Source: a bacterium
GTDB taxonomy: Bacteria > Patescibacteriota > Minisyncoccia > Phycocordibacterales > JBBTRF01
Assembly (NCBI GenBank): GCA_037130265.1
Contig: JBAXTI010000001.1
Coordinates: 235,086-299,085 of the forward strand
Reading direction: 5' to 3'
Length of the DNA: 64,000 nucleotides
Each line of letters begins with the position of its first letter. The stretch's first letter is position 1. Under the pieces are notes generated by a model. That model saw only the letters and a program-made list of their open reading frames with translations, had not been told where the DNA came from and searched no databases. This document shows, piece by piece, positions 3,030 through 48,813 of this stretch. The position numbers and the translations under genes are program-made.

Positions 3030-6000
3030 ATGTCATCTAAAGATTCAGACAAGAAGCCAAAGGGCGGCAGCGAGGGCAAAAGCGACAAGGGTGGAAAAGG
3101 CGGCGCATCAGAGGCGTCGGCTTTGCCTGCGCGAGAGAATGTGGTGAGTCGCAGTATCACGACTGAAATGCGCGACTCGTATTTGGACTACGCGATGTCC
3201 GTGATCACTGCGCGTGCTTTGCCAGATGTGCGCGATGGTTTGAAGCCGGTACACCGACGTATTTTGTACGCGATGCATGAAATGGGTCTCACCGCGAGCA
3301 CGAAGACACGAAAGTCGGCCGCGGTGGTGGGAGACGTACTCGGAAAGTATCACCCGCACGGCAACGTGGCGGTATATGAGTCGATGGTGAAGATGGCCCA
3401 GGATTTTTCGATTCGGTATCCGCTGATTATTGGGCAAGGTAACTTTGGTTGTTTTACAAAAGACACAAAAGTCCGATTGGCTGACGGCCGCAATCTCTCT
3501 TTTGGCGAGCTCATCGATGAGGATAAGAATGGTAAGAAAAATTACGCCTTCACTGTCTCAAAAGAAGGAAAGATTGAAATCGCTCAACTCACAAAACCGC
3601 GGCTCACTATCAAAGGCGCCGAAATTATGAAAGTGATTCTTGATAATGGCGAGGAAATTCGATGCACGCTGAATCATAAGTTCCTTTTGAAAAACCAGGA
3701 ATACAAAGAGGCGCAATATTTGAAACCGGGCGAATCATTGATGCCTCTTTACACTCGTCTTTCTACGAAAGGCGAAAGTGCACTCTCGGACATGGTGGGA
3801 TATGAAATGATCTACCAACCGCTTGAAAATACTTGGGAGTATGCACATTATTTGGCCGACGCTTTCAACATCTCGACTGGAAAGTATGCAAAATCAGCTG
3901 GCAAGGTGCGACATCATGTCGATTTCAATAAACTCAATAATAGCCCAGAAAACATCCAGCGAATGCAGTGGCTTGAGCATTGGCGCCTCCACTCTGAACT
4001 AACCGCGAGTCGTCATAAAAATGATCCTGAGTATGTAAAAAAGCTTGCTGAAGGCAGAAAGATTTTCCGTGCCAAGAGCGGCATAAAAGAGCAGTACAGC
4101 CAGAGGATGTCAAAGAGAAATAAGCAGAATTGGCAGAATCCTGAATATCGTGCACAGATGATCGAGACGCTCCGTCGAGTGAATCTTGAGTATATTGCTA
4201 CTCATCCTGAAAAGCGCCTAGAACTTTCAGCTCGCGCAACCAAGACGTTGAAGCGATTGTGGCAAGATGAGACGTATCGCCAAGAGATGCACGAACGAAT
4301 CGTCCGAGGGAATAAAAACCACACCACCAATAAGACCGGCAAGAAAAAGTTTGATACGGTCTGCAAGAAATTGATCGAAGTCGGAGTACCGATTTCTAAA
4401 GAGACCTACGATGAATTTCGTCCGAAGGTGTATCCATACAAAGCGGCTACTTCGTGGGAGGTCGGTTTCAGTAAATATTACAATGGCAATATTGAACAGT
4501 TGACCGTAGAGCTTGCAGGAAATCACAAAGTGTCCAGTGTCGAATTTTCTGGCGAACACGAGGATGTATACGATCTCACTTTGCCAATAAGTCACAACTT
4601 TGCGCTGGCGGCGGGCGTATTTGTGCACAACTCCATCGACGGTGACGGTGCGGCAGCAGAACGATACACCGAAGCGAAGATGGCGCGTGTGTCCTCGACC
4701 CTGCTTCAGGATATTGAGAAAGACACTGTTGACTTTCGTCCAAACTACGAAAATACTCGCAAGGAGCCGAGTGTGTTGCCGGCCGCTGTTCCGAACCTAC
4801 TGCTGAACGGCACCCTCGGTATCGCCGTCGGTATGGCGACCAACATCCCGCCGCACAACCTTGGCGAAGTGGTGGACGCAACAACTCATCTCATCGAAAA
4901 CCCCGACGCTTCGACCGAAGATCTTTTGCAATTTGTGAAGGGTCCCGATTTCCCGACCGGTGCGATGCTCTACGCTTCAGCAGAAATGAAACATGCATAT
5001 ACCACCGGTCGTGGTGGTGTGGTAGTACGTGGCGAGGCGGAAATTGTCGAGACAAAGACTGGTTCATTCCAGATTGTCATCACTTCGATCCCATATCGTG
5101 TAAATAAGGCCGACCTCATCCTCACCATTGCCGACCTTGTGCGAGAGAAGAAAATTGAAGGTATTAGAACGATGCGTGATGAATCGACCAAGGACATCCG
5201 TGTCGTAATCGACCTCAAACAAGGCGCTTTCCCTCAGGCTGTATTGAACTTTTTGTATAAACACACCCAGCTTGAAGACACCTTCCACTTCAACACTGTT
5301 GCCCTCGTGGACGGCGTGCCGCAGACACTTTCGCTGAAGAGTGTACTGGAGGAATTTGTGAAGCACCGACAGATCGTCGTGCGACGCCGAACAGAATTTG
5401 ACCTTCGCAAGGCCGAAGACCGCGAGCATATCTTGCTCGGCTTGAAAAAGGCGCTCGACCATATCGATGAGATCATTAAATTGATCAAAAAGTCGAAGGA
5501 CACTCCGGAGGCGCATCTCAATTTGATGAAGACCTTCAAATTCTCCGACCGCCAGGCGACTGCTATTTTGGAAATGAAGCTGTCACGACTTGCGGGTCTC
5601 GAGCGACAGAAGATTGAGGACGAGCTCAATGCTGTCCAGGCGCTCATCCGCGAGCTCAAGGATTTGCTCTCGAGTGCAAAGAAGATTTTGGCCGTGATTA
5701 AGAAAGAATTGCTCGAAGTTCGCGCGAAATACGGCGACGAACGACGCACTAAAGTCATCCGTGGCGGCGTGAAAGAATTCAAGCCGGAAGATACCATTCC
5801 TGATGTGGATTCTGTGCTCGTGCTCACCGCAGGTGGCTACATCAAGCGCACCTTGCCAGACGAATATCGCCGACAGAAGCGTGGCGGTGTGGGTGTTGTC
5901 GATCTCGATACCAAGGAAGAGGATTTCATCACCCATATTTTGAATGCGAACACGCATGCGGATATGTTGTTCTTCACGAACAAGGGCAAGGCGTACCAGA

Positions 6001-6782
6001 TCAAGATGTACGAGATTCCAGAAGGCAAGCGTGCTACAAAAGGTAAGTCTATTGTAAACTTCCTCGCGCTCGCCGATGATGAACGTGTCACCTCGATTCT
6101 CCCAATGCCAAAGGAGGTGAAGAAGAGTGGTCTCAGTCTCTTCATGGTCACCAAAAACGGCGTAGGCAAGAAGGTGAATGCTGAAACCTTCCATGATGTG
6201 CGCCGAAGTGGTCTCATTGCTATTGGCCTCGATGCAGGTGACAGTTTGGTGTCCGTACGATTTGTGGAGAAGGGCGACGAAGTGATCCTTGCGACGAGCG
6301 AAGGTCAGTCGATTCGATTCAAAGAAACTGATATTCGTGAGATGGGTCGTGCGGCGATGGGCGTTATCGCGATGCGTCTCGAAAAGGGCGACACGGTCAT
6401 TGGTGCCGACGTCGTGAAGAAAGATATGAAGAAGCCGGCATTGCTGGTGATCATGAGCAACGGCTATGGCAAGCAGACCGAGCTCTCCGAATACAAGGTC
6501 CAGAAGCGCGGCGGTTCCGGTATTTTGACTGCGAAGATCACCGACAAGACCGGCAAGGTGATCACCTCGAGTGTGGTGGATACTGCAGCTGCAAAGGATG
6601 GGAAAGATGCCAAGGAGGGCGAGGCGGAGCTGGAGATGAACGAGCTTGTAGCTATTTCAAAAAAGAGTCAGGTGATCCGGTGCGATATCGCGGAGATACC
6701 AGTGCTCGGCCGACAGACTCAGGGTGTGCGTATTATGCGTCTGCGTGATGGGGACTCTTTGGCGAGTGCGGTGTGTTTGTAG
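3030..6782 (+). CDS. gyrA: DNA gyrase subunit A interrupted by a 394-aa intein
   Basis: The N-extein carries canonical GyrA motifs ([48 protein letters not shown]). After the intein the sequence resumes with [20 protein letters not shown], which includes the catalytic Tyr in RYTEA. A long GyrA C-terminal beta-pinwheel region follows. Total length is 1250 aa against about 830-900 for an uninterrupted GyrA. Confidence 0.92.
3450..4631 (+). mobile_element. intein within gyrA (Cys1 ... His-Asn/Ser+1) carrying an HNH-type endonuclease module
   Basis: The insert starts with Cys directly after GNFG ([13 protein letters not shown], splicing block A). Block B is TLNHKFL. It ends [22 protein letters not shown] followed by S+1. 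The middle region contains [18 protein letters not shown] (His-His...Asn...Asn, an HNH signature) and three tandem motifs of about 20 aa ([42 protein letters not shown]). Confidence 0.8.
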
Positions 6783-6932: not shown

Positions 6933-8093
6933 TCAGGGACGGCTTTGGGCGGCCTGCTGAATCACTCGGATGCGCCAGAATCGATTGCTCGACCCGACGC
7001 TGTTCACCGGCGTGGGGCAGAGGTAGTGGGCGATACCGCTCTGTGAGAGGGCGGGTAGCGTTACCTCTGTGGTCCACTGGACTGCGGGTCCAAAACCACC
7101 AGCGCTTTCGAGCACCACGAGGTCTCCGGGTTGTCCCACGATGCTCACCTTTGGCTTTCCGCTGACGAGCGAGACGCCGGTGACCATTGGATTCCCGATC
7201 GGTTGCCCGGTCGGTAGCCAATATCGCGGAAACGTGCCGTCCGCCGCTTCGAGAGCGAGGACTGCCGGAGTTCCGTTGGTTAGGAGCGAGAGGTGGATGC
7301 CGATGCGGCCGATGCCGTAGAGGCGGAGGAGTTTGACTCCGTCCGTATGTTCGTAGTCGCCGTAGGCCGACATATCGGCCTGAGTCCGGTCGATAATCGA
7401 ACTACCCCAGCCCTTACTTTGGACTTCGCTCACGCTGCCGTCTGGGTTACCCGTGAAGACTCGAGCATATGTTTTTCGCTCAAAGTAATACTGGAAATAC
7501 CAAGGCGGCGGAGGCAATTGGTCGAAATACTTCAGGTCCGGGAAGGACAAGAAGATGTAGGGTGAGAGGTAGACGGGAATCGTGTCGGCCATAGCGGTGT
7601 TCGGAAGTTTGAAGCCTCCGGAACCATTGGGGAGAATCGGGATGATTCCGTTGATACCCGCCATCTCCAACGTGGTCGTCGGAACATTATCCTGTGGGAA
7701 GATGCTCGTGATGCCCACCTCCTTCGCTGTGGCGATGAGGAGGAAGGTTGCATTCGTCGCGTTGTTGTTCGCTGATGGAAAGTTTGTTGCCAAACATGCC
7801 ACCTGAAAAGCAACTTCGCGTAGTTTGCTGACGACCGCATCTGGGCTGAGGCCTGCGGAGAAGGAGATATTGGTGAACAAGACAGGTGCTTCTTCTTGGA
7901 CCGCATAGTAGTCGTGTGGGGTCCGATAGAGCGATGCACTAATCGTATTCACTTTCGCAAGTTGTTGTGTGCGAATCTGGCTGATGGTGCTTGGGAGCAC
8001 ATCAGCTGCTCCAACCTCCACCGTGACCAGCTGGGTCAGGTAGGCGAGGGAACCGACAAGGGCGGCAAGCGCCCGATTGCGTAGGGCATTCAT
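6933..8093 (-). CDS. hypothetical secreted protein (N-terminal signal peptide)
   Basis: MNALRNRALAALVGSLAYLTQLVTV looks like a signal peptide. No recognisable catalytic motifs. It is convergent with gyrA. Confidence 0.45.
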   Translation of the reverse strand: MNALRNRALAALVGSLAYLTQLVTVEVGAADVLPSTISQIRTQQLAKVNTISASLYRTPHDYYAVQEEAPVLFTNISFSAGLSPDAVVSKLREVAFQVACLATNFPSANNNATNATFLLIATAKEVGITSIFPQDNVPTTTLEMAGINGIIPILPNGSGGFKLPNTAMADTIPVYLSPYIFLSFPDLKYFDQLPPPPWYFQYYFERKTYARVFTGNPDGSVSEVQSKGWGSSIIDRTQADMSAYGDYEHTDGVKLLRLYGIGRIGIHLSLLTNGTPAVLALEAADGTFPRYWLPTGQPIGNPMVTGVSLVSGKPKVSIVGQPGDLVVLESAGGFGPAVQWTTEVTLPALSQSGIAHYLCPTPVNSVGSSNRFWRIRVIQQAAQSRP

Positions 8094-8322
8094 AGGTAAA
8101 TTGCATGGACGGGGGTTGCGGTTGACCGTTGTTTGACTGCAGAAAAGTTGTCAAAGCCGTTATTAACACTACCTCTAAAAATATGAAAAGTCAAGAGTTA
8201 TCCACAGATGCTTAAAAAGCCCACTATCCAAGGATTTTGCAATCCACAGTGGTTTGATTTTGTCTTGAAAAAAAGTGATATACTTCAAAAGTACTCATTA
8301 ATTTGTTTCCATTTTTTTCACC

Positions 8323-9957
8323 ATGAAACACCTCTCCAAAACTCTCCTTGACATCGCCCGAGCCGCCACGTTACTTCTTGTGATCGGACTTGGCGCCAGC
8401 GTAGTGTCGGCGCAGTTTTCGACACCGCTGGTGCTGACGTCTTCATGGGTAGAAGCTCCCTCTAATGCTCCTGCAAATAATGCATCCGCGCCAATCAACG
8501 TCAGTGTGAATGCTCAGCGAAAGTCAGGTTCTCTTTTGCTCGGTACATCTGCAGTTTTGAACTACCCTCAAACGATCATGCTTGACGTCCTCGGCCTCGC
8601 CAGCACTACCGTCCTTTCCACCGACTACCTCCTTGTTGCCAAAGACTTCACCTATGCCAAAGGCAGTAACCTTGCCGGCAAGGTGTTGACATCGGATGCG
8701 TATGGGGTGGCGAGTTGGGCGGCGCCGGTGGCATCATCTTGTACCGCAGGGACTTCAGGTACGGATGCTTTCAGTAATCCAGGTACCTACACCTGGACAG
8801 TTCCATCAGGCGTCACTTCTATAAAGGTGAAGGTATGGGGTGCGGGTGGAAATGGTGGTAGTGGTGCGCCTTCATATGCAGCGGCGGGTGCAAATGGCGG
8901 TGGTGGTGGTGGAGGGGGTGGTGGTGGAGGATACGCTGAAAAAACCATCACGATTCCCGCTGGGACGACTAGCTATCAGGTGACGGTAGGTGCTCATGGT
9001 GTTACCGGATTTTCAGCCTTCGACACTTCTGCTGTGAAAGCGACAAACGGCAGTAATGGTGTGAATCATACTGACAACGGCTCTACGGGTAGCGCTGGTG
9101 GTGCTGGTGGTGCTCCAATCGGTACATACACAGCATCTCAAAATGGTACTGCTGGTTCTGTTGGACAATCTGGCGGATACACAAATTGTGGTGGCGGCTT
9201 TAGCTACGACGGTAGCGGTGGTAATGGTGGTGCCTCAGTTTCACCTTCTACTGCAGGTGCCGGAGGTATTATTGGTTCATGTAGTCAGTCTGGCGTTGCT
9301 GGCGGTGCTGGAACTGTCGGTGGCGGAGGTGGGGGTGGTTCTGGATACTCTGGTGCGGTGCTGAACGGTGGTGCTGGAGGGGACGGACGAGTAACTATTG
9401 AATACAGTACGGGTGGATCTTGTGCAGCAACACAGACCACTACTTCAACCACCGGTGCCACTATTGTTTGCGGTGGCTGGGATGTGAAATACAACTCCGG
9501 CTACGTTGCCGGATCAAATTGGGGATGTGCTGTGCCTGACACTACATCAGTGGCATGTCCTGCTGGTTATGACGATATTAAATCAAGCAAGGTGACGATC
9601 AGCTTGGCGGAGCAAACACATTTGTGCGTACTGCACGCATCTGGTGGTACGACCTCGACTGGAGCCATAAGCGTCCCTTCAGGTACTCATTGCGGTTATT
9701 TTTCAGGAGTGCTAGATACCAACAAACAATATACATTTGGCAGTCGTCAAACTACAGGACTCTGTCAATCAAAGGCGCTCGTATACTCAGATGCATATAG
9801 CGGATTTTCAACAATGGGCGCTGGTGCCACGCAAGCATCTCGAAATAGTTACTTCTGTCCGGCTGGCTTTTCTTTCCTTTATTACACATACGCACCAGAT
9901 TCTAACGGTGACACGTATCGAGGTGACAGTTTTACTGGCACTTGCATGAAAGACTAG
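8323..9957 (+). CDS. secreted glycine-rich surface protein with a poly-Gly tract and a Cys-rich C-terminal domain
   Basis: Signal peptide (MKHLSKTLLDIARAATLLLVIGLGASVVSAQF). A G12 run is encoded by a (GGT/GGN)n repeat at about 8881-8940. Many GGxGG repeats are present. The C-terminal roughly 180 aa contain more than 12 Cys. Confidence 0.6.
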   Translation: MKHLSKTLLDIARAATLLLVIGLGASVVSAQFSTPLVLTSSWVEAPSNAPANNASAPINVSVNAQRKSGSLLLGTSAVLNYPQTIMLDVLGLASTTVLSTDYLLVAKDFTYAKGSNLAGKVLTSDAYGVASWAAPVASSCTAGTSGTDAFSNPGTYTWTVPSGVTSIKVKVWGAGGNGGSGAPSYAAAGANGGGGGGGGGGGGYAEKTITIPAGTTSYQVTVGAHGVTGFSAFDTSAVKATNGSNGVNHTDNGSTGSAGGAGGAPIGTYTASQNGTAGSVGQSGGYTNCGGGFSYDGSGGNGGASVSPSTAGAGGIIGSCSQSGVAGGAGTVGGGGGGGSGYSGAVLNGGAGGDGRVTIEYSTGGSCAATQTTTSTTGATIVCGGWDVKYNSGYVAGSNWGCAVPDTTSVACPAGYDDIKSSKVTISLAEQTHLCVLHASGGTTSTGAISVPSGTHCGYFSGVLDTNKQYTFGSRQTTGLCQSKALVYSDAYSGFSTMGAGATQASRNSYFCPAGFSFLYYTYAPDSNGDTYRGDSFTGTCMKD

Positions 9958-9988
9958 CGATCAATCGCCCAACTTTGTGCTTTAAACC

Positions 9989-10516
9989 ATGTTCTCCCAT
10001 CCACACAAAAATACTGATCAGCTGGGGTTGATGCCTGGAATGAAGGTGGCGGATTTGGGTGCGGGCGTGGGGGCGTATGCGATCCCTGTGGCGCAGGCGG
10101 TGGGTGAAAAAGGACGAGTGTATGCGGTGGAGGTGCAGCAGGAGTTGGTCGCGAAGATCAAGGCGAATGTCGAACACGCTCGCTTGAAAAATGTCGAGTA
10201 TCTGTGGGGGAATATCGAACAGCGTGGTGGTACACATATTGGCGATGAGCTCGTGGACTTCGTGATTGTGGCGAATGTGTTGTTTCAGGCAGTCGACAAG
10301 GCGGGTTTGGTCGTGGAGGTGCGACGCATCTTGAAGAAAGGAGGCAAAGCCGTTGTGATCGATTGGAAAGAGTCTTTTGGTGGCATCGGCCCAGCAGTGC
10401 AGGAGGTGGTGAATGAATCGAAGGCGAAAGAATTGTTTACACAGCATGGCTTCCAGCATCTGCGGGGCATCTCAGCAGGGGATCATCATTACGGGCTTAT
10501 CTTCACAAAAATATGA
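9989..10516 (+). CDS. class I SAM-dependent methyltransferase
   Basis: Motif I VADLGAGVGAYAIPVA, then a post-I acidic residue (VYAVEV), then motif IV-like VIVANVLFQ. Confidence 0.65.
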   Translation: MFSHPHKNTDQLGLMPGMKVADLGAGVGAYAIPVAQAVGEKGRVYAVEVQQELVAKIKANVEHARLKNVEYLWGNIEQRGGTHIGDELVDFVIVANVLFQAVDKAGLVVEVRRILKKGGKAVVIDWKESFGGIGPAVQEVVNESKAKELFTQHGFQHLRGISAGDHHYGLIFTKI

Positions 10517-11811
10517 AAGGCATGAGTACATTTCAGATCGTCCTCACTGGCTTGTTTGCCGGAGCGACCCTCGTGGCGTTGGTCGTGTTTGCGACCTTCA
10601 AGGGTTCGGCGAGCAAAGATTTTCCAGCGATCGTGTTGTGGGGTACGCTGCCAGCTGCTGAGTTCTCTCAGGCAGTGTCTGCGGTGAATCAAACCTTACC
10701 GAAACGCTTGTCTGTCACCTATGTCGAGAAGAGGGAAAAGGATTTTGATCGCGACCTCACCGAAGCGCTCGCTTCTGGTGCTGGGCCTGATGCTGTTTTG
10801 TTGCCTCACACCAGTCTGTATCGCCAACAGAGTCGCATTCTGCCGATTCCGGAGGCGAGCCTGCCGCTGAGGACTTTTCGAGACACCTTCACCGACCAGG
10901 CTCGCCTCTATGAGACCGCCGGCGGCGTCTGGGCACTGCCATTTGTGAGTGATCCGCTCGTGATGTATTGGAACAAGGATATGTTCAATGCCGCTGGCCT
11001 CGCGAATCCGCCAAAATATTGGGATGAATTTCTCACCCTCGTTCCGCAGCTCACCAAAAAGGATGCGGCAGGCAATCTCACGCAAAGTGCGGTACCGTTT
11101 GGCGAAGTGGTGAATGTTGCCAATGCAAAGGATACCCTCTCGGCATTGCTCTTGCAGGCAGGAACACCGATTGTGCGAGTTGAACAGGATGGTAGAGCTT
11201 CCAGCGCTTTGTCCGATCGGGCTCAAGGTGCATCAGAAACCCCAGCGCCATCGGTGGTGGCTTTTTATACGCAATTCTCCAATCCATCGAAAACGACATT
11301 TACCTGGAATCGTGCGGTGGGCGACGCACAGAATTTCTTTTTGGCCGGCAATCTTGCAACTTATTTTGCTTTTGCAAGTGAAAATCAAGCCTTGTTGCGC
11401 AAGAATCCAAACCTCAATTTCGATATTGCCGCTCTGCCTCAGCCTCGGGATGTGAAGGTGCCGGTGGTATATGCCAAGCTGTATGGGTTTGCTTTAATGA
11501 AGGCAGGGAAGAATCCCGCTGGTACTTTTGAAACGCTCTCTGTGTTGTCGGGGAGTGCATTCGTGGATACGTTTGTGAAATTTGGCAGCGCATCGCCAGT
11601 GCGTCGCGACCTTCTTTCCATTGTGCCTACCGATCCGGCGCAGGTGGTGGCGTATCGAGCGGCGCTCGTCGCCCGCAGCTGGCTCGACCCAGAGCCTGTG
11701 GCGAGCGCCGCCATCTTCAAACGCATGATCGAAACCGTCACCTCAGGCAAGTATCGCCCAAGCGAGGCGGTGGGTGCTGCATCGCAAGAATTGCAGGCTC
11801 TGCTACAATAA
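10513..11811 (+). CDS. membrane-anchored extracellular solute-binding-protein-like protein
   Basis: An N-terminal TM anchor is followed by a periplasmic-binding-protein-like region (WALPFVSDPLVMYWNKDMFNAAGLANPPKYWDEF). The start overlaps the stop of the upstream gene by 4 nt. Confidence 0.4.
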   Translation: MKGMSTFQIVLTGLFAGATLVALVVFATFKGSASKDFPAIVLWGTLPAAEFSQAVSAVNQTLPKRLSVTYVEKREKDFDRDLTEALASGAGPDAVLLPHTSLYRQQSRILPIPEASLPLRTFRDTFTDQARLYETAGGVWALPFVSDPLVMYWNKDMFNAAGLANPPKYWDEFLTLVPQLTKKDAAGNLTQSAVPFGEVVNVANAKDTLSALLLQAGTPIVRVEQDGRASSALSDRAQGASETPAPSVVAFYTQFSNPSKTTFTWNRAVGDAQNFFLAGNLATYFAFASENQALLRKNPNLNFDIAALPQPRDVKVPVVYAKLYGFALMKAGKNPAGTFETLSVLSGSAFVDTFVKFGSASPVRRDLLSIVPTDPAQVVAYRAALVARSWLDPEPVASAAIFKRMIETVTSGKYRPSEAVGAASQELQALLQ

Positions 11812-11817
11812 AGACAC

Positions 11818-12315
11818 ATGCAAAATACCCAAACATTTTTTAGAACCAGTTTCGCCTCGCTGACCCTGTCGCTGCTCGTCACGTCCATTCTCCTGTTCGT
11901 TTTTTCCGCGGCCTTCTTACCAGTGACTGCGAACGCGGCAACCAGTGGCAGCTTCTTCGGCCTCCAGAAGCCCAACCTCATCGTCTGCGGGGATTTTGGC
12001 AATTCGGCCAACCCAACAGCCAATCATGAATGTACGTTCGCCGATGTGGTGACATTGGCGAAAAATCTCGTGAACTTTGCTTTCTATCTTTCCATTCCAG
12101 CGGTCATCCTGCTCCTCTCCTACGCTGGCTACCTCTACATGACCTCCGCAGGGGATGAGGGGAAAGTTGGGCAGGCCCACACGATCTTCACCAACGTCGC
12201 GATCGGCTTTTGTATTATTTTGGCGGCGTGGCTCATTGTGACCACTGTGTTGAAGGCCGTGTTGGATCAGACAGCCTACCCGATTTTGAATGGGGACAAG
12301 ATTGAGATAAAATAA
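11818..12315 (+). CDS. TrbC/VirB2-like (T4SS-pilin-like) small membrane protein, paralog 1 (signal peptide plus 2 TM hairpin)
   Basis: Cleavable-looking signal peptide (...PVTANA), a Cys-x15-Cys loop, then two hydrophobic helices flanking a GDEGKVGQAH loop. The YxGYLYxTSAGDExKV core is shared with the four downstream paralogs. Confidence 0.55.
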   Translation: MQNTQTFFRTSFASLTLSLLVTSILLFVFSAAFLPVTANAATSGSFFGLQKPNLIVCGDFGNSANPTANHECTFADVVTLAKNLVNFAFYLSIPAVILLLSYAGYLYMTSAGDEGKVGQAHTIFTNVAIGFCIILAAWLIVTTVLKAVLDQTAYPILNGDKIEIK

Positions 12316-12319
12316 AGAT

Positions 12320-12724
12320 ATGAAACATATTTCGCAGACAACACAACGATATCCAGCTCTAAGACGCATTGCCGCTCACTGCCTCGTCGCGATCGCGCTA
12401 TTTGCTGTGTCGGCGCCGCTGGTGCACGCACAGAGCTACAATTCACCAACGCCATTAGGCTTCTCCAACCCACTGAAAGCCACCTCGATTGAAGCTCTGC
12501 TTGCCGACATTCTCCAGCTAGTGAGCCGTCTCGGTGCAATCATTGCCGTCCTGTATTTCATCTACGGTGGCTTTCTGTATGTCACCGCACAGGGCGACGA
12601 GGACAAGGTGGGGAAGGCTCACGGCACGCTCAAATGGGCCGCGGTGGGTACAGCGGTATTGCTCAGTGCTGAGATCATCGCGCGCATCATCGAGAATACG
12701 GTGAGAAGCGTCAGTAATATATAA
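12320..12724 (+). CDS. TrbC/VirB2-like pilin-like small membrane protein, paralog 2
   Basis: Signal peptide (...PLVHAQ). The core is AIIAVLYFIYGGFLYVTAQGDEDKVGKAHGTLKWAAVGTAVLLSAEIIARII. Confidence 0.55.
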   Translation: MKHISQTTQRYPALRRIAAHCLVAIALFAVSAPLVHAQSYNSPTPLGFSNPLKATSIEALLADILQLVSRLGAIIAVLYFIYGGFLYVTAQGDEDKVGKAHGTLKWAAVGTAVLLSAEIIARIIENTVRSVSNI

Positions 12725-12729
12725 TCACC

Positions 12730-12996
12730 ATGCTCAACGGCGTCACCGATTTCAAAAGCCTCATCGATGTCTTCTATAACATCATCGGTGGAACACTAGC
12801 GCCACTTCTTTTTGCTACGGCGATCGTCGCCTTTCTCTACGGTGTACAAAAGTACATTTTGGCTGGCGCCAGCGAAGACAAGGTGAAGGAGGGGAGAGAC
12901 ATGATGATTTACGGTATCATTGGCCTAGCCGTGATGTTCTCTGTCTGGGGATTGGTGCGACTGGTGATCAGCACCTTCTTTACAGGACAGTTTTAG
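12730..12996 (+). CDS. TrbC/VirB2-like pilin-like small membrane protein, paralog 3 (no signal peptide)
   Basis: AIVAFLYGVQKYILAGASEDKVKEGRDMMIYGIIGLAVMFSVWGLVRLV has the same two-helix layout and the same G-x-x-E-D-K-V loop. Confidence 0.5.
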   Translation: MLNGVTDFKSLIDVFYNIIGGTLAPLLFATAIVAFLYGVQKYILAGASEDKVKEGRDMMIYGIIGLAVMFSVWGLVRLVISTFFTGQF

Positions 12997-13020
12997 GCGG
13001 GTTCTGTCCACAACCTCGAT

Positions 13021-13048
13021 TTGTCGCCATTTCTCAGGCTGGTATAAT
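13021..13048 (+). promoter_or_regulatory. sigma70-like promoter (TTGTCG-N16-TATAAT) inside the pilin-like array
   Basis: TTGTCG at 13021-13026, a 16-nt spacer and TATAAT at 13043-13048, which is about 60 nt upstream of the ATG at 13108. Confidence 0.45.
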
Positions 13049-13107
13049 GGAGCGAGGTAATATTTGCCTTTGTATCTATTACTTATTTATCAGGAGTTTA
13101 TTATATT

Positions 13108-13500
13108 TTGATTATGAAAACGTTTTTGCGCGGAATTTCAGCGGTTGGAGCAGCATTTTTTCCAGTGTTCGTTTTTGCTGCAGATGCAACCGCCCTCAAT
13201 TCTAATAAGGGGATTGGCGGTTTGGCTCGACTGTTCGGACAGATACTAGACTGGGCTGTTCCAACCCTCATTGCCTGTGCGGTGGTGTATTTCCTTTACG
13301 GTGTACTCCTGTATGTAATCATGGGAGATGACGAGGAGAAGAAGGAAAAAGCGAAGAGCACGATACTTTATGGCATTGTCGGCATTTTTGTCATGGTATC
13401 AGTTTTCGGCCTCGTTAAGTTGGTCCAGAACACTTTTACCGGTAGCATTGATTCGAATGCAAGCCTTACTCCTCCTAGCCTGTCTGGCCTAACTCCGTAA
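13108..13500 (+). CDS. TrbC/VirB2-like pilin-like small membrane protein, paralog 4 (signal peptide)
   Basis: Signal peptide (...FVFAADA). The core is ACAVVYFLYGVLLYVIMGDDEEKKEKAKSTILYGIVGIFVMVSVFGLVKLV. Confidence 0.55.
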   Translation: MIMKTFLRGISAVGAAFFPVFVFAADATALNSNKGIGGLARLFGQILDWAVPTLIACAVVYFLYGVLLYVIMGDDEEKKEKAKSTILYGIVGIFVMVSVFGLVKLVQNTFTGSIDSNASLTPPSLSGLTP

Positions 13501-13507
13501 AAAAGAC

Positions 13508-13774
13508 GTGGCCGCTGTCTCCAATGCTGGAAATACGTTGATCAATAAGCTTGCCGACGTCATCGTCAATCCGGTGCTCAAGCTCGCCTTCGCGATAGCC
13601 TTCCTAGCCTTCCTCTGGGGGGTCTTCCAGTATGTGAAGGGGGCGGACAATGAGGAGGCACGTGCTCTCGGGGTGAAACACATGACCTGGGGAGTGGTCG
13701 GGTTGGCGATCATGGTGACTGCTAAGGCCATTGTGAATCTCATTGGTGTGACGGTTGGGGTGTCGGTGTTCTAG
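13508..13774 (+). CDS. TrbC/VirB2-like pilin-like small membrane protein, paralog 5
   Basis: The core is AFAIAFLAFLWGVFQYVKGADNEEARALGVKHMTWGVVGLAIMVTAKAIVNLI. Confidence 0.5.
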   Translation: MAAVSNAGNTLINKLADVIVNPVLKLAFAIAFLAFLWGVFQYVKGADNEEARALGVKHMTWGVVGLAIMVTAKAIVNLIGVTVGVSVF

Positions 13775-13840
13775 TGTGATGCGCCACAAGGCGAATCTCT
13801 CGGGTCGGCAAAAATAAAGGCAAATAAAGGCAAAGAAAAA

Positions 13841-13884
13841 AGAGCGGGGACCGTGAGGTTCCCGCTCTTCGCGTTTTGTTTTTG
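13841..13884. terminator. bidirectional rho-independent terminator
   Basis: Hairpin agagcggggaccgtgaggttcccgctct followed by tcgcgttttgtttttg. It lies between the convergent pilin-like array and the 13900-14589 gene. It is preceded by the direct repeat aaataaaggcaaataaaggcaaag. Confidence 0.65.
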
Positions 13885-13899
13885 CGTTGTTACTTCTGC

Positions 13900-14589
13900 C
13901 TATCGAACGTGTTCGAGGCGGAAGGTGTAGGTCTGGCCATTCACTGCAAAGCTGCCGGTGAATAGGGTGTCGTTGATGAAGTTCCCGATGAACCTCCCTC
14001 GCATGTTTCTTTCGAGGTTCTCCACGATGCCTTCTGGCAAGCGTTGGTTCCACTCGTAGCGACTGTGCGATGTGATCCCTTCGTAGGGCGAGGGGACACT
14101 GAACATGAACCGAGGTTCCTGCCCTCTGACCCTCTCGAGGATTCTCACGTCGTCGGTCTTCCAGACCAATCTCCCAGTAGCGGCTTCCTGTTCGGAATAC
14201 CGCCAGACTTCTGGTGAGGCTGGGGACGGACTAGAGACGATGCTGGCCTGTATCAGTGTCATGCCATTCGACCACTTGTGCTTGTCGACGGCGTAGTAGA
14301 TACCGTAGAGGACACCGGCGATGAGGAGGAGCCAGGCAGCCTTCACTGCGAGCCACTTTATGGCGCGCCAGCAGGTTGCCAGGAAGCCTTTCTCTTTGTC
14401 GGCCGCTTTCTTTGCCGCGGCTTCTGCTTCAGCTTTCGCCTTGGCTTCTGCAGCGGCTTTGGCAGCCGGGTCGGTGGGGAGGGGCTCTGCCGGCTTCTCC
14501 TTCTTTTTTAGCGCCCATTGCCCGATTATTACGGCCAGCACAACCAATGCAATGGCCACGATTCCTACGATCACGATTGTTGTATCCAT
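13900..14589 (-). CDS. hypothetical membrane protein with a Lys/Ala-rich linker; possibly the partner protein of the upstream SPFH gene
   Basis: N-terminal TM segment (IVIVGIVAIALVVLAVIIG), a KPAEPLPTDPAAKAAAEAKAKAEAEAAAKKAADKEK low-complexity stretch, a second TM and a beta-rich C-terminus. It lies 12 nt downstream of the SPFH gene on the same strand. Confidence 0.4.
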   Translation of the reverse strand: MDTTIVIVGIVAIALVVLAVIIGQWALKKKEKPAEPLPTDPAAKAAAEAKAKAEAEAAAKKAADKEKGFLATCWRAIKWLAVKAAWLLLIAGVLYGIYYAVDKHKWSNGMTLIQASIVSSPSPASPEVWRYSEQEAATGRLVWKTDDVRILERVRGQEPRFMFSVPSPYEGITSHSRYEWNQRLPEGIVENLERNMRGRFIGNFINDTLFTGSFAVNGQTYTFRLEHVR

Positions 14590-14601
14590 AGGTGTTGTCT
14601 T

Positions 14602-16056
14602 TCAGGGTGTTGCTTGTGTGGTGTTTGGACTCGGTGCTGGAGGCCGTGCACTGTGAGAGGCTTGAGCGGTGAGGGTGAGACGTTTTGACGCGTCTTCTCC
14701 CAGGACCAGTGTTCCTCCCATTGTGCCGACTGATCTTGCGAACAGACCAGGAACGGCACCTGGGTTGTTGCTGTAGTGTTCAAGCTCGGCCTTAAGCCTT
14801 GCGTTGTCCGCCACGGCTTGTAATCTGGTAGCCTCAGCCTTCGCTGCTGCTTCCTTAATCACGCCTTTACCTTGAGCTTCTTTAACAGTCTCGGCCATCA
14901 TGGCGGTAGTCAGCTCCTGTCTTTGTGCCTCGAGTTTGTCATCGAGCTCAACGCTGAGGAATCGAATCTCGATCACCTTCACTCCGAGGATTTCGGTGAT
15001 GGACGGGTTACAGCCATCGCGCTCGTTGATGACGTTCATCACGCCTTCGACAATTTCCTGTCGCGCCTTCTTACAGGTTGCAACAGTTAGTTCCGTCGGT
15101 GCTGCTGATGTTTCGGGTGTGGTTACAACTCCGTCCTTCAGCAGATCGAAGTATCTGTGCTGAGCTACTCTCTCGCGAAGCTTGTCTTCGATTGCGCCAG
15201 TCGCTCGCTCCAGCCAGCTATTGCTGCCGGTCCGAAACTGCATGAGATAGATGTTGGTCGCCTCAAAGGTTACCAGTAGCTCTATCTTCACCGGGATGAC
15301 CTGGTTCTCCTTGCCAGCTGTTTCGAGTTCTTTAAACATCATGCCGACCGTGCTCTTATAGAAGATTGACCGAGCCTCGTCGCTTTTTGGGGTAAGGTGG
15401 TAGTCAATGCTTCCGGCCTTGCTGTCCGAGTTCTTCACAAACTTGTTGTAGGCTAATGGCCATGTCCTCAGCTGGAAGAACGGATAGATCCCGATCCATT
15501 GCATGTTGAACAGTGACATAAGGACCATGTCTCGCCAGTGGAGTAGTGACCACAGGCTTCTCTTCGAAGTCTCGTAGTCTTTCTCGTCTTCTTTTCGAAG
15601 AGCAACTTGCTCTGCAGTTGCTGTGGCGGGTAAGGGGTCAATTGGAATTTTCCGAACCTCCCCGATGCGATGACCTTCTTGCACGACATACATGTCTCTC
15701 ACGCCGGATATAAACCGATGAGGAAGATCACCCTTCATGATCGTGAAGAAGCCGTTCTCCTCTGCGAACATGAAGAATCGGTCACGTTTCGCTGCACCGT
15801 AGATGGCGAAGACGATCGTGGTAAGGCAAGCGATACATGCAATCACGACGAGTGTCCACACGACCGGATTCCAGTCGGGGAGCGTCCAATGAGGCAGCCA
15901 AGACATCAGATCGATGTCCTGCATACGGAATGATGTGGTGTTGGTCACGCTTGGCTTGGGTGCCTCTTTCGAGCCGCCGAAGCTTCGTATGACCACGATG
16001 ATGGCGAAGCTCAGCCCTGATAGGAGGGTGAGTGCGCCGATGATTTGGTGTTTCAT
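14602..16056 (-). CDS. SPFH/band-7 (stomatin/flotillin/HflC-like) membrane protein
   Basis: Two N-terminal TM segments, a core resembling an SPFH domain (QVIPVKIELLVTFEATNIYLMQF...) and a C-terminal Ala/Glu-rich coiled-coil (EAQRQELTTAMMAETVKEAQGKGVIKEAAAKAEATRLQAVADNARLKAE) typical of band-7 proteins. Confidence 0.5.
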   Translation of the reverse strand: MKHQIIGALTLLSGLSFAIIVVIRSFGGSKEAPKPSVTNTTSFRMQDIDLMSWLPHWTLPDWNPVVWTLVVIACIACLTTIVFAIYGAAKRDRFFMFAEENGFFTIMKGDLPHRFISGVRDMYVVQEGHRIGEVRKIPIDPLPATATAEQVALRKEDEKDYETSKRSLWSLLHWRDMVLMSLFNMQWIGIYPFFQLRTWPLAYNKFVKNSDSKAGSIDYHLTPKSDEARSIFYKSTVGMMFKELETAGKENQVIPVKIELLVTFEATNIYLMQFRTGSNSWLERATGAIEDKLRERVAQHRYFDLLKDGVVTTPETSAAPTELTVATCKKARQEIVEGVMNVINERDGCNPSITEILGVKVIEIRFLSVELDDKLEAQRQELTTAMMAETVKEAQGKGVIKEAAAKAEATRLQAVADNARLKAELEHYSNNPGAVPGLFARSVGTMGGTLVLGEDASKRLTLTAQASHSARPPAPSPNTTQATP

Positions 16057-26073: not shown

Positions 26074-26865
26074 ATGGCTCGTAAGTGGACAACTGAAGAA
26101 GAAAGCAACCATCGACACGAGCTGAGCGAGTTGTACGAACACGGTAACTTATCTATTGGACAGATCGCAAAGCGGCTCGGCATTGCTCAGCAGACCATTT
26201 TCAAGCGCATTCGTCGGCTCGGTCTCGTGCCTCACCCTGAGCGAAAGTCGAAGTATAGAAATACGCGGAATGACATCCATATCCCAGAAGAATATTCCGA
26301 TGAACTGGCGGAATTTATCGGGATCATGCTTGGGGACGGTCACCTGTCGCACTTTCAGGCGGTGGTTACATTGGGAACGAAAGAGGTTCCCTATGCTCGG
26401 TATGTCCGTAGGCTCATCACGAAGCTTTTTAAAGCAGAGGCGTCAATCTCGATTCGTGCTGACGGATATCGAGATGTATATCTCAGCTCGGTTGTGGTGA
26501 CAAAATGGCTACGGACACACGGTCTCGTTTCAAATAAAGTATTGGGTCAAGTCGCTCCACCAAAATGGATTTTTACGAAGCCTTCTTTCAAAGAGGCTTT
26601 TATAAGGGGAGTGTTCGATACTGATGGGTCCGTATACAAACTTCGTTTTGGCGTGCAAGTCTCATTTTCCAATCGATCCAGGCCGCTGCTCCGGTCTTTA
26701 CAATTAGCCTTAAGGCAATTACAATACACACCATCTGAGATCAGTGGATACCAGTTGTATCTCACGAAGAATTCAGACCTCAGACGCTTTCTGAAGGAGA
26801 TTTGTCCGAGGAATCCGAAGCATGTTCGTCGGTTCAGGCTCTTTCTGAAATCAGTAAAGAAGTAA
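26074..26865 (+). CDS. free-standing HTH plus double-motif LAGLIDADG homing-endonuclease-like protein
   Basis: Two LAGLIDADG motifs are present (AEFIGIMLGDGHLS and FIRGVFDTDGSVYK). The N-terminal HTH is LSIGQIAKRLGIAQQTIFKRIRRLG. The stop at 26865 is 13 nt before the tRNA-Tyr 5' end. Confidence 0.75.
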   Translation: MARKWTTEEESNHRHELSELYEHGNLSIGQIAKRLGIAQQTIFKRIRRLGLVPHPERKSKYRNTRNDIHIPEEYSDELAEFIGIMLGDGHLSHFQAVVTLGTKEVPYARYVRRLITKLFKAEASISIRADGYRDVYLSSVVVTKWLRTHGLVSNKVLGQVAPPKWIFTKPSFKEAFIRGVFDTDGSVYKLRFGVQVSFSNRSRPLLRSLQLALRQLQYTPSEISGYQLYLTKNSDLRRFLKEICPRNPKHVRRFRLFLKSVKK

Positions 26866-26878: not shown

Positions 26879-26963
26879 TGCGCAGGTACTCAAGCGGTCA
26901 ACGAGGACCGGCTGTAAACCGGTTGGCTACGCCTACGGGGGTTCGAGTCCCTCCCTGCGCACC
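26879..26963 (+). tRNA. tRNA-Tyr (anticodon GTA), long variable arm, CCA encoded
   Basis: GCGCAGGTACTCAAGCGGTCAACGAGGACCGGCTGTAAACCGGTTGGCTACGCCTACGGGGGTTCGAGTCCCTCCCTGCGCACCA. Anticodon loop CTGTAAA. Confidence 0.9.
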
Positions 26964-26974
26964 AAAATACAGCA

Positions 26975-40383: not shown

Positions 40384-42834
40384 TTGACCATGGACTCCTC
40401 ACTCATCCAAAAAAAGATTCAAGCATTCCAACCGGCCTTGGCACTCGATGCTTTGGTTGGTTCAGCAAAGCGCCGGACGACGCGTCAGGTCTGGGCGACC
40501 GTGTTCGTGTCGCTTTTGGCGGTGGTGCTCGCCGGAAAGGGGGGCAATCTTGCGCTCGGACTTTTCTGCATTTCCTTTGCAATCGTGTTGAAGGTGTATG
40601 CGATCGAATTTTTCTTCAATTCATATGCGCATAGTCGTGATGCCGACTCTTCGTACATGCTCGCTTCGATGCTGTATCGCTGTACGACATTGCATCCGAC
40701 TGCTGTGTTTATCCTTTCGCCTTTTGGCCGCTGGACATTGAATCGGTGTGGTGTCGGCCGCCTCCCAGCACAGGCATTTTTGACACAAATGACCCATTCG
40801 GCGCAGCCGTTGCCATTGGACCTTTCGGAGGTGCGCACGTTTGCGCAGTTTGTTGAAGAATTGCTCCATGTTGATACGGCGTTTGCACAGTTTTTGCGAG
40901 AATCTGGGGTGGAGAAGAGTGCGTGTATCGGCGCGGCGGAGTGGTGTGAGATTCGCGAGAAGGCTCGTATTGCACAGGCGCGCTGGTGGAGTCATGAAAG
41001 TCTCGCGCGTATTCCGGGATTGGCGAAAGATTGGGCGTATGGCAAAACATATCATTTGGATCGTTTTGGCCGGGATGTGATTGTTGATGCACGTCGACAT
41101 TCGGCTTTGTCGTCTCCTGCGGCTTCGACATTGAGCCTGAATCCTGAATCGTCTTTCCGCCGTGCCGAAATGGTGGCGGTGGAGAAGGTCTTGGTACGAG
41201 ATGGTGCGGGCAGTGCTCTGTTGGTGGGCGACAAGGCGAATGGGGTAATGGATGTGATTCATGGAATCGCCCGGATGATTGATCTCGGTATTGCATACCC
41301 AGAAATCGAGCACAAGCGTTTGATTCGTCTTGATACCCCTTCGATCATGGCGTCGGTGAAGGATCGTGGTTCTTGCGAGGCGTTACTCATTTCTATTTTC
41401 AATGAAGTGGTGAAGGCGGGGAATGTGATTGTGGTGATCGATGAGTTTGCGCTGTTTGTACGCGACACTGCCGCCCTCGGAATCGAAGTACAGTCGCTCC
41501 TTGCCCCGTATCTGTCCTCGGGCGGCGTCCAGCTCATCGCGGTCTCCGACGTGCATTCGTTCCATCAGGTGTTGGAGCCAAAAGCTGAGCTTATGCGATT
41601 TTTTGAAAAGATTCTCCTTGCGCCGATCGACTCCCGTGTGCTTGTGGAGCTGTTGGAGTCGGAAATCGAGCGTGTGGAGCGTCGCAACGGTGTTTTCTTC
41701 ACCTTTCCGGCCATGAAGGAGGTGGTGGAAAGTGCAGAGCGGTATTTTTCACAGGGTTCAAGTATCGACAAGGCACATGACCTCATTGCCGAGATTGCGC
41801 CTTTTGTGCGCGGGCAGAAGCGCAATGTGGTGGAGCGGGCAGATGTGCTCAGTGTGGTGAGCACCAAGACAGGTATTCCACTTGGCGAAGCGTCGGCGGG
41901 CGAGAAGGATGTACTTTTGAAACTTGAAAGTATCTTGCATCAGCGGATTGTTGGGCAGGCGGCGGGTATTCAAGCGATCAGCAACGCAATGCGACGTGCG
42001 CGTTCCGGCGTGAACAATCCAAAGCGTCCGATGGGCTCCTTCCTCTTTATCGGACCAACGGGTGTGGGTAAGACGGAGATGACGAAGGCTCTGGCGAGTG
42101 TATTTTTTGGCAGCGAAGATCGGATCATGCGTTTCGATATGTCGGAATATCGCACGCCGGATGCGCTTGAGCGACTCATCGGCTCGGCGAGTGGTGGGGC
42201 GCCTGGCTTGTTGGCTTCACATTTGCGCGACCAACAATATGGCGTGCTTTTGCTCGATGAATTCGAGAAAACAAACTCCACCGTGCACGATCTGTTTTTG
42301 CAGATCTTGGACGAAGGTTTTTTCACTGATGCGAGTGGTGAGCGGGTGAATGCGCGAAACACTATTATTATTGCGACCTCGAATGCGGGGAGTGATGTGA
42401 TTTGGAAGTTGCTCGGCAATATGAGCGGCAGTGCGGCGGGTGCCAGTGTTGGTGGCGCGACGGGCACATCGATCGCAGATAAAAAATCTGAGATTATCGA
42501 CTCGATCGTTGAGCGCGCAATTTTCAAACCGGAATTGTTGAATCGTTTTGATGATGTGGTGTTGTTCCAGCCGCTTTCGCCGAACGACATGGAGAAGGTC
42601 GGGCGACTCATGTTGGCAAAGCTGAACAAGCGCCTCGATGAAAAGGGGGTGAGTGTCGAAGTTACCGACGAATTGGTGGCGTATTTGGTGAAGGAGGGGT
42701 GTGACCAGAAGTTTGGGGCACGAGCGATGAATCGAGCCATTCAGGAGAAGGTGGAGCAGGCCGTGGCGAAGGCACTTTTGAAAGGTGAGGCAAAACCTGG
42801 TACAGTGCTGCACATCCGACCGGAGGAGCTGTAG
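40384..42834 (+). CDS. membrane-anchored Clp/Hsp100-family ATPase with degenerate D1 and intact D2
   Basis: About 100 N-terminal aa contain two hydrophobic helices. A D1-like region follows with Walker A replaced (LLVGDKANGVMDVIHGIARMI where ClpA/B has LIGEPGVGKTAIxEGLA), although IVVIDEF and PDKAIDL-like elements (IDKAHDLIAE) are retained. A canonical D2 follows ([77 protein letters not shown], sensor GARAMNR). Confidence 0.7.
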   Translation: MTMDSSLIQKKIQAFQPALALDALVGSAKRRTTRQVWATVFVSLLAVVLAGKGGNLALGLFCISFAIVLKVYAIEFFFNSYAHSRDADSSYMLASMLYRCTTLHPTAVFILSPFGRWTLNRCGVGRLPAQAFLTQMTHSAQPLPLDLSEVRTFAQFVEELLHVDTAFAQFLRESGVEKSACIGAAEWCEIREKARIAQARWWSHESLARIPGLAKDWAYGKTYHLDRFGRDVIVDARRHSALSSPAASTLSLNPESSFRRAEMVAVEKVLVRDGAGSALLVGDKANGVMDVIHGIARMIDLGIAYPEIEHKRLIRLDTPSIMASVKDRGSCEALLISIFNEVVKAGNVIVVIDEFALFVRDTAALGIEVQSLLAPYLSSGGVQLIAVSDVHSFHQVLEPKAELMRFFEKILLAPIDSRVLVELLESEIERVERRNGVFFTFPAMKEVVESAERYFSQGSSIDKAHDLIAEIAPFVRGQKRNVVERADVLSVVSTKTGIPLGEASAGEKDVLLKLESILHQRIVGQAAGIQAISNAMRRARSGVNNPKRPMGSFLFIGPTGVGKTEMTKALASVFFGSEDRIMRFDMSEYRTPDALERLIGSASGGAPGLLASHLRDQQYGVLLLDEFEKTNSTVHDLFLQILDEGFFTDASGERVNARNTIIIATSNAGSDVIWKLLGNMSGSAAGASVGGATGTSIADKKSEIIDSIVERAIFKPELLNRFDDVVLFQPLSPNDMEKVGRLMLAKLNKRLDEKGVSVEVTDELVAYLVKEGCDQKFGARAMNRAIQEKVEQAVAKALLKGEAKPGTVLHIRPEEL

Positions 42835-46868: not shown

Positions 46869-46939
46869 TGGGGGATCGTCTAATGGTAGGACATCAGGTT
46901 TTGGTCCTGAGTATCGGGGTTCGAGTCCCTGTCCCCCAG
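46869..46939 (+). tRNA. tRNA-Gln (anticodon TTG)
   Basis: TGGGGGATCGTCTAATGGTAGGACATCAGGTTTTGGTCCTGAGTATCGGGGTTCGAGTCCCTGTCCCCCAG. U1-A72 and G73 match the bacterial Gln identity set. Anticodon loop TTTTGGT. Confidence 0.85.
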
Positions 46940-47024
46940 CAGTCTAGTTTAGTTCTGAACGACCAAGAGGGGTCAGAACAAACAGATATCTATACCGTCA
47001 TCGCATACCTGCTGAGAGCAGTAT

Positions 47025-47675: not shown

Positions 47676-47676
47676 T

Positions 47677-48812: not shown

Positions 48813-48813
48813 T

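Follow-up and report, generated by a model that had tools for sequence, protein, structure and literature searches.

An ordered array of five divergent VirB2/TrbC-like pilin genes behind a MalE-like solute-binding protein gene in a Paceibacteria chromosome

A large part of the uncultured diversity of bacteria belongs to the Patescibacteria, the cultured members of which grow attached to host cells. This report concerns five consecutive + strand open reading frames (ORFs), named P1 to P5, that encode small pilin-like proteins at positions 11818-13774 of a 64 kb stretch of contig JBAXTI010000001.1, referred to here as the window. The closest described arrays are likewise from Patescibacteria. 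In Southlakia epibionticum ML1, a type IV secretion system (T4SS) cluster was found to be essential for epibiotic growth by transposon sequencing (Wang et al., 2023, Cell, PMC10633639). This cluster includes six divergent pilins of Pfam family PF18895, SEML1_0014-0019, directly after VirB6 (PMC10633639); one of the six is annotated as 'pilin', two also match TrbC, and there is no solute-binding protein (SBP) partner at the array. A survey of 3,035 Patescibacteria assemblies with the same Pfam models reports, in its main text, VirB4 in 2,417 assemblies and VirB2-like pilins in 1,948 of the VirB4-bearing ones, with the pilins near virB4 in 1,135 (Quinonero-Coronel et al., 2025, Microb Genom, PMC12102498). 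According to the same text there are 441 arrays of 2-11 VirB2-like genes, defined as pilin genes in tandem or one gene apart, with a mean identity of 25 % and a maximum of 54 %. The arrays are called highly variable there and are proposed to provide host-range versatility, in a passage that makes no mention of a conserved order of paralogues; for Paceibacteria, the T4SS is reported near dnaA/dnaN (PMC12102498). A 2025 review describes the potential to form conjugative pili as unique, among monoderms, to the Patescibacteria systems.

Patescibacteria pilin arrays have therefore already been described and automatically annotated, and the present array is a further example. It is considered fairly likely that P1-P5 are non-redundant subunits of a T4SS pilus or channel, the machinery of which is encoded elsewhere, and that they are co-transcribed with an SBP-like protein. 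The uncertain parts of this interpretation are the dependence on a T4SS and the division of labour between the subunits.

Pilin genes of the array

The ORFs at 11818-13774 form a five-gene + strand pilin array, as first described in the initial annotation, which had proposed five same-strand genes for hairpin membrane proteins resembling T4SS pilins. P1 (11818..12315) encodes 165 amino acids (aa), with a long signal peptide followed by a 'LIVC...C' Cys-loop segment and then a two-helix hairpin. P2 (12320..12724) is a paralogue of 134 aa, also with a signal peptide, and is both the most TrbC/VirB2-like and the most conserved member of the array. P3 (12730..12996) is a short paralogue of 88 aa without a signal peptide. 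P4 (13108..13500) has a signal peptide and is either 130 aa, from a TTG at 13108, or 128 aa, from the ATG at 13114 at which the public gene call begins. P5 (13508..13774) is again a short paralogue of 88 aa, with a GTG start and no signal peptide. The junctions P1/P2, P2/P3, P3/P4, and P4/P5 are of 4, 5, 111, and 7 nt. Pairwise identity between the paralogues is 17-43 %, with a mean of 27.5 %.

In HMMER searches, all five proteins passed the gathering score of 26.6 bits for PF18895 (T4SS_pilin), at 43.4 (P1), 48.5 (P2), 34.6 (P3), 37.5 (P4), and 39.4 bits (P5), with E values from 2e-8 to 9e-13; this agreement of five ORFs far exceeds chance. P2 also passed the threshold for PF04956 (TrbC/VirB2; 28.8 bits, threshold 27.9), while P5 was below it (20.7 bits, E = 4.8e-4). 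An NCBI record with a protein identical to P2, from a metagenome-assembled genome (MAG), already bears the name 'MAG: pilin [bacterium]'. In addition, all five have sub-threshold matches to NCBIfam NF045849, the pilin-like conjugal transfer protein of Mycoplasma integrative and conjugative elements, at 20-26 bits against a cut-off of 40 (E = 5e-6 to 5e-4), with alignments that span nearly the whole model. These matches suggest that VirB2-like hairpin proteins may also exist in monoderm-type conjugation systems. P1-P5 are almost certainly VirB2/TrbC-superfamily pilin homologues of a family typical of Patescibacteria.

It is extremely unlikely that these are instead generic small membrane proteins, holins or others with two transmembrane (TM) segments, that look like pilins by composition only. 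Pfam does return matches to other membrane families for P1-P5, which would fit with this explanation, but beside the pilin matches these are weak and sub-threshold. Against it are the five above-threshold PF18895 matches, the PF04956 match, and the shared, if sub-threshold, NF045849 matches, and the context is chromosomal rather than that of a prophage. When P1-P5 were searched against PHROGs, no holin or other phage family was found; four of the proteins had no match and P4 had one, of unknown function (E = 0.0065). A holin or generic two-TM identity, which had been raised as the way in which the pilin assignment might fail, is effectively ruled out on these results.

Hydrophobic hairpin segments are present in all five paralogues. 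In P1, P2, and P4 a further hydrophobic segment precedes these at the N-terminus and closes with an A-x-A-like site (TANA/AT, VHA/QS, and VFA/AD), and P3 and P5 have the two hairpin helices only. Longer upstream forms of P3 and P5 are ruled out, because a stop codon directly precedes each. Leader-like segments are thus predicted in three of the proteins and not in the other two, which is the distribution of signal peptides that had been proposed. Likewise, the Cys-Cys loop noted for the first gene is formed of Cys57 and Cys72 of P1, which stand ahead of helix 1. A conserved loop joins the two helices, as had been claimed, with the motif Y-x4-[GAD]-[DSN]-E-x-K-[VK] across P1-P5; the version of this motif first given was one residue too long for P1 and P2. 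Other than the start Met, only Y107, E114, and G130 (P1 numbering) are invariant across the five. An AlphaFold2 (AF2) model of P2, made from a 15-sequence alignment, has a leader helix at residues 12-35 and a long hairpin of helices 57-89 and 94-132.

A Gracilibacteria homologue (locus L065, 9845-12514, 889 aa) carries a PF18895 domain at residues 68-137 together with several C-terminal PKD repeats, and adjoins a second pilin gene. Judged by its domains, this fusion protein looks like a pilin-anchored adhesin, and the C-terminal position of the PKD repeats fits with a pilin C-terminus that is exposed outside the cell.

Paralogue order and the sugar-binding partner

The window corresponds to about positions 134,507-198,506 of contig NODE_1 (368,215 bp) in ENA assembly ERZ4222710. 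Proteins identical or orthologous to P2 come from MAGs of the 'Patescibacteria group'. A scan of GTDB species representatives with P2-specific motifs gave 60 related loci (numbered with the prefix L), in which the presence of P2 is by construction, since the loci were retrieved with those motifs. Their titles include Candidatus Zambryskibacteria, Kaiserbacteria, and Taylorbacteria, Paceibacteria or Parcubacteria, and many of the third-party annotation (TPA) assemblies among them carry the label 'uncultured Candidatus Saccharibacteria'. The orthologues and syntenic loci in Patescibacteria MAGs bear out the affiliation of the host with this group, the candidate phyla radiation (CPR) of the initial annotation. 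The host of the array is a Paceibacteria (Parcubacteria) bacterium, and the array is chromosomal.

ORFs were called in the ~60 related loci and searched with a profile built from the five paralogues. In almost all of these loci, 4-7 pilin genes follow one another on the same strand. For 54 distant, non-duplicate arrays of at least four genes, the class of each gene was taken as that of the best-matching window paralogue. The P1 class was found only at the first position of the array, in all 38 of the 38 distant loci having P1. The P2 class is second in 42 arrays and first in 14 where P1 is absent, and a P5-class gene closes 46 of the 54; in the middle are P3- or P4-like genes. The conserved 'LIVC...C' Cys pair before helix 1 distinguishes the P1 class, and the arrays starting with the P2 class are without this pair. 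In a distant relative (L008, 1628-1882), a small GIY-YIG endonuclease gene lies inside the array, in the gap before the penultimate pilin gene.

Conservation differs between the classes and along the proteins. The P2 hairpin motif, FIYGGFLYVTAQG..AH..L....GTAV, stays unchanged even where overall identity falls to 38-43 %, and the mature part of P1 is nearly invariant among close orthologues. P3 is 99 % identical to its counterpart in the closest strain. P4 is 64-66 % identical to its close orthologues, with an invariant hairpin and all of the differences in the signal peptide and the N- and C-terminal tails; the tails differ even between strains whose P2 and P3 are 97-99 % identical. Ratios of non-synonymous to synonymous substitution (dN/dS) against the closest strain (L070) are 0.008 for P3, 0.047 for P2, 0.11 for the SBP-like gene, 0.13 for P5, and 0.21 for P1, values that are rough because dS is high (0.36-0.90 for these genes). 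For P4, dS against the same strain is saturated or undefined and the divergence is confined to the leader and tails, therefore positive selection on this gene is not claimed.

From these alignments, P1-P5 are ancient, ordered paralogue classes under purifying selection rather than recent copies. The data fit an old set of non-redundant subunits with variable exposed termini, and not recent amplification or a set of interchangeable variants. The latter explanation, in which the array is a cassette of interchangeable major-pilin variants for antigenic, phage-escape, or host-range variation, has been proposed for the virB2 arrays of Bartonella and Anaplasma and is suggested for Patescibacteria arrays in the main text of the survey (PMC12102498). 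The low identity between the paralogues (at most 43 %) and the strain-to-strain variation in the exposed P4 tails would agree with it, and a separate distal promoter could permit differential expression. However, class position and architecture, including the leader and Cys loop, are kept across about 54 distant species, the hairpin cores are invariant within a class and different between classes, and dN/dS is well below 1. Protein identity of 43 % or less also leaves little DNA similarity for cassette exchange, and the tight junctions favour co-expression of P1-P3 and of P4-P5. Such a cassette is accordingly judged quite improbable here, and recent copies made for antigenic variation are unlikely.

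Directly upstream of the array are two further + strand genes. The first (9989..10516) encodes a small class I S-adenosylmethionine (SAM)-dependent methyltransferase of 175 aa (Pfam Methyltransf_31/11/25), the stop of which overlaps the start of the next gene by 4 nt. This second gene (10513..11811) ends 6 nt before P1 and encodes a membrane-anchored, MalE-like (family 1) oligosaccharide-type SBP of 432 aa. It matches SBP_bac_1 at 56.9 bits (threshold 26). Its AF2 model has a two-lobed MalE-like fold, with a predicted local distance difference test score (pLDDT) of 91.4 and an N-terminal TM helix at residues 6-31. The top Foldseek matches of the model are oligosaccharide-binding proteins (E about 1e-21), with ligands that include cyclic maltosyl-maltose, maltodextrin, sucrose or maltotriose, and arabino- or manno-oligosaccharides. 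The best PDB match by sequence is 4r9f, a mannobiose-binding protein (E = 6.8e-21). Among 41 SBP-like homologues, several Trp, Tyr, and Phe positions do not vary, and these aromatics would be typical of sugar-stacking sites.

This gene had been noted in the initial annotation as a solute-binding-like flanking gene. The identity holds, but it is more than a flank. In 60 of 61 de-duplicated loci, the gene that directly precedes the array is an SBP-like homologue of 28-43 % identity, at a median distance of -2 nt. Further upstream, gyrA is present in 49 of the 61, and the genes downstream of the array are variable. In 32-40 of the ~61 loci, gyrA and the SBP-like gene are separated by a methyltransferase homologue, which is also present in L071, a locus that lacks gyrA; this methyltransferase gene is probably the first conserved gene of the transcription unit. 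When loci were sampled from the SBP side, chosen regardless of pilins, the SBP homologues of L071 and L072 were each found to be followed by a pilin array, the first gene of which is in both cases a divergent pilin below the Pfam threshold. The link between SBP and pilins is independent of gyrA synteny, because L071 is without gyrA. Conservation of this gene order indicates that the SBP-like gene is an operon partner of the pilin array. No match to ABC permease or ATPase families (BPD_transp, ABC_tran) was found in the window, nor was there an ORF with LSGGQ plus Walker A in ~70 related loci. The main text of the 2025 survey (PMC12102498) mentions neither a solute-binding protein nor gyrA, and a full-text literature search for the combination of an SBP with a pilin array returned nothing.

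Expression signals and chromosomal setting

Gene spacing from the methyltransferase and SBP-like genes through the pilins is operon-like, with successive junctions of -4, 6, 4, 5, and 7 nt and one gap of 111 nt. Within this gap, between P3 and P4, is a candidate sigma-70-like promoter on the + strand at 13021..13048, TTGTCG-16 nt-TATAAT with a TG before the second hexamer, which scores 10/12 and is the best-scoring + strand promoter match in 11400-14200. The same hexamers and spacing are found in L006 and L010, and in many distant loci a TTGnnn-16/17-TATnAT site precedes the start codon by about 50-75 nt. The gap itself is a recurrent feature: across 58 arrays the penultimate gene is preceded by a median of 103.5 nt, compared with 8 nt for the other junctions, and this gap is the largest in 43 of the 58. 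Sites scoring at least 10/12 number 7 in these gaps, compared with a mean of 1.9 and a maximum of 6 in shuffled sequences. No terminator-like hairpin was found in the P3-P4 gap. Comparison of the loci points to a conserved two-block layout, methyltransferase-SBP-P1-P2-P3 followed by P4-P5. The internal promoter of the initial annotation is supported by the conserved ~100 nt gap and by motifs above the level of shuffled sequence, with an enrichment that is modest; its presence ahead of P4-P5 is plausible, though unproven.

For the proximal genes, no + strand consensus promoter match of at least 9/12 was found within 7900-11900. An intrinsic-terminator-like hairpin at 13840..13869, with a 13-bp stem containing 8 G-C pairs and followed by a T-run, lies between the array and convergent minus-strand genes. 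An Rfam scan of the array region gave nothing credible, the only match being to L20_leader (E = 0.13), on the other strand beyond P5.

The two convergent genes (13900-16056, minus strand; 229 aa and 484 aa) had been taken to be an SPFH protein and its partner. This label does not hold for the gene at 14602-16056, which matches Band_7 with E = 0.33 and 11.4 bits against a threshold of 23.6, and neither protein of the pair has a significant family match or a relative in the PDB. Among the ~67 loci listed, duplicates included, the 229-aa protein is present in 9 and the 484-aa protein in 6, or in 4 and 3 after de-duplication. The pair is conserved only in the closest relatives and therefore is not part of the pilin unit. 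A Pfam match does exist for the orphan receiver domain that had been noted nearby, at 26.6 bits, although this is under the threshold of 30.2.

Just upstream of the operon, at 8323-9957, is a gene for a hypervariable glycine-rich protein of 544 aa (Gly_rich_2) with an N-terminal hydrophobic segment. Identity with the version in the closest strain is 38 %, compared with 90-99 % for the genes around it, and in other relatives it is replaced by versions of 429-763 aa. GyrA (3030-6782, 1,250 aa) is interrupted by an intein (Intein_splicing, residues 150-534), which is kept in close relatives (1,248-1,251 aa); in most distant relatives GyrA is of ~820 aa, without the intein.

Other genes of the window are those of an ordinary chromosome rather than a prophage, and include ribosomal protein S1, GyrA, IF-2, ClpB, alanine racemase, topoisomerase I, DprA, SerRS, DnaX, and ParB. 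A stand-alone gene with helix-turn-helix (HTH) and LAGLIDADG_3 domains, homing-endonuclease-like, is located at 26074-26865, just before tRNA-Tyr (26880-26964). At 40384-42834 is a second Clp/Hsp100-like ATPase of 816 aa, in which only the second AAA module was matched (AAA_2 and ClpB_D2-small at residues 548-810), the first ~530 residues being without a Pfam match. The region 46869-52000 has a GC content of 32-41 %, against ~52 % elsewhere, and is bounded by tRNA-Gln (46869-46940) and a large serine recombinase (50575-51918, minus strand). Genes for two methyltransferases, a NUDIX hydrolase, and an APH-type phosphotransferase are found in it beside an unknown gene, and the region is probably an integrated mobile element.

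Proposed structure and comparison with known systems

If P1-P5 are non-redundant subunits of a T4SS pilus or channel, each pilin would enter the membrane as a hairpin of helices, leaving its two termini outside and its charged loop within the cell. P1, P2, and P4 are predicted to use cleavable leaders for this, and P3 and P5 to insert without one. A VirB4-dependent T4SS of monoderm type, encoded elsewhere in the genome, would then extract the pilins and assemble them, as non-redundant parts, into a pilus or a conduit that spans the envelope. P2 would probably be the major subunit, with P1, which has the Cys loop, and P3, P4, and P5 as minor or specialised pilins that may have initiating, capping, adaptor, or anchoring roles, and the variable N- and C-termini would face outward. 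The methyltransferase and MalE-like SBP would be co-transcribed with the pilins, as the gene spacing partly shows, and P4-P5 may receive extra or separate transcription from the internal promoter, for which the conserved gap and its motifs are likewise partial evidence. The SBP-like protein could plausibly supply glycan recognition at the host interface.

Several observations weigh against this interpretation. Among window ORFs of at least 150 aa there is none of the VirB4, VirB6, VirD4, or relaxase families, so that the reported absence of the first three nearby is true for the 64 kb window, and in the ~60 relatives the DNA within 10 kb of the array contains no conserved ATPase of VirB4 size. 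Two large Walker-A ORFs near the arrays of distant loci are UvrB (L066) and an EGF-repeat protein (L067), not VirB4. The distance from the array to any T4SS gene is 12 kb or more on one side and 50 kb or more on the other. For this genome, the connection with a T4SS depends on the literature, in which the Patescibacteria T4SS pilus is itself described only as predicted or potential (2025 review; PMC10633639). The roles of the individual paralogues and of the SBP-like protein are drawn from conservation and gene order only, and the gyrA synteny in 49 of 61 loci indicates that gene order in this clade is conserved even without a functional link. A profile of the five paralogues against PDB sequences gave no match even at E = 10, so no solved pilin was found by sequence, and the confidence of the P2 model is only moderate (pLDDT 70.8). 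Finally, the enrichment of promoter motifs in the gap is slight, with a mean best score of 8.32 against 7.90 in shuffled sequences, the highest mean of any shuffle being 8.2.

Some of these observations would be expected if the locus were a T4SS-independent module, in which the anchored sugar-binding protein and five hairpin proteins form a membrane or surface device of their own, derived from VirB2-like pilins and free of VirB4, such as a fibre that binds glycans or a complex for adhesion or non-ABC uptake. The lack of a VirB4-like gene in the window, and of a VirB4-sized conserved ATPase close to the arrays of relatives, would be accounted for, as would the invariable neighbour being an SBP without ABC partners nearby; by contrast, the Saccharimonadia array is inside a T4SS cluster and has no SBP. 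Against such a module, VirB2-type pilins are not known to polymerise in the absence of a VirB4-type machine, and gene order is conserved here even for the clearly unrelated gyrA. In addition, the main text of the survey gives VirB4 in about 80 % of Patescibacteria assemblies, and pilins away from virB4 in ~40 % of the assemblies with both, so distance alone is weak evidence (PMC12102498). A module of this kind is therefore regarded as unlikely, and a pilus or channel that depends on a T4SS encoded elsewhere is preferred.

A further suggestion, made tentatively and judged rather unlikely, is that in Paceibacteria VirB2-like pilins have been uncoupled from the T4SS cluster and joined, in a conserved operon, to a membrane-anchored, ABC-less MalE-like SBP, which would act as receptor or adhesin of a pilin-built structure, an organelle for host contact or nutrient acquisition rather than a conjugation pilus. 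Were this the case, the SBP might recognise host cell-wall glycans, or capture host oligosaccharides for import through the pilin/T4SS conduit.

The locus reveals no new kind of system. A T4SS with its pilin array is essential in the one species open to such a test. For one large class of Patescibacteria, the pilin paralogues are now seen to be a fixed, ordered, and individually conserved set, which argues for a multi-component structure rather than interchangeable variants. This set is co-encoded with an anchored sugar-binding protein in nearly all loci, with no ABC transporter genes in the DNA examined. Two leads follow: the identity of the major subunit among the paralogues, and a possible coupling of glycan recognition to the pilus.

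Compared with the arrays in the main text of the survey (PMC12102498), the present one is alike in host phylum, in its tandem same-strand genes (five, within the range of 2-11), in identity (mean 27.5 %, maximum 43 %), and in lying away from virB4, as pilin genes there often do. It differs in that the survey is centred on virB4 neighbourhoods, while here there are position-conserved classes under purifying selection. The S. epibionticum array shares the tandem, divergent PF18895 pilins in a Patescibacterium; however, it sits inside the T4SS cluster without an SBP in a member of the Saccharimonadia, whereas this array is from the Paceibacteria, unlinked to a T4SS cluster and in an operon with an SBP-like gene.

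With VirB2 (Ti), TrbC (RP4), and TraA (F) there is likeness in the small two-helix hairpin with a charged connecting loop, in the long N-terminal leader of P1, P2, and P4, and in P2 passing the TrbC/VirB2 Pfam model. Those pilins are encoded by single genes in diderm T4SS operons beside virB3/virB4, and some are cyclised, whereas here there are five paralogues in a monoderm-type host, two of them leaderless, and no adjacent T4SS genes. The virB2 arrays of Bartonella and Anaplasma phagocytophilum, as presented in the survey's main text, are similar in having tandem divergent copies in a host-dependent bacterium (PMC12102498). They are thought to serve antigenic variation or host range, while in the present array order and class are conserved and dN/dS is low. 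Mbov_0395/MMCAP2_0565, of NF045849, is similar as an 80-residue hairpin protein of the conjugation system of a wall-less monoderm, but it is a single gene on a mobile element, and P1-P5, being under the NF045849 cut-off, are not members of that family. Set beside these systems, what the locus adds to the literature found is modest: an ordered, conserved set of pilin paralogues, an invariable sugar-binding partner without ABC genes, and a conserved internal gap.

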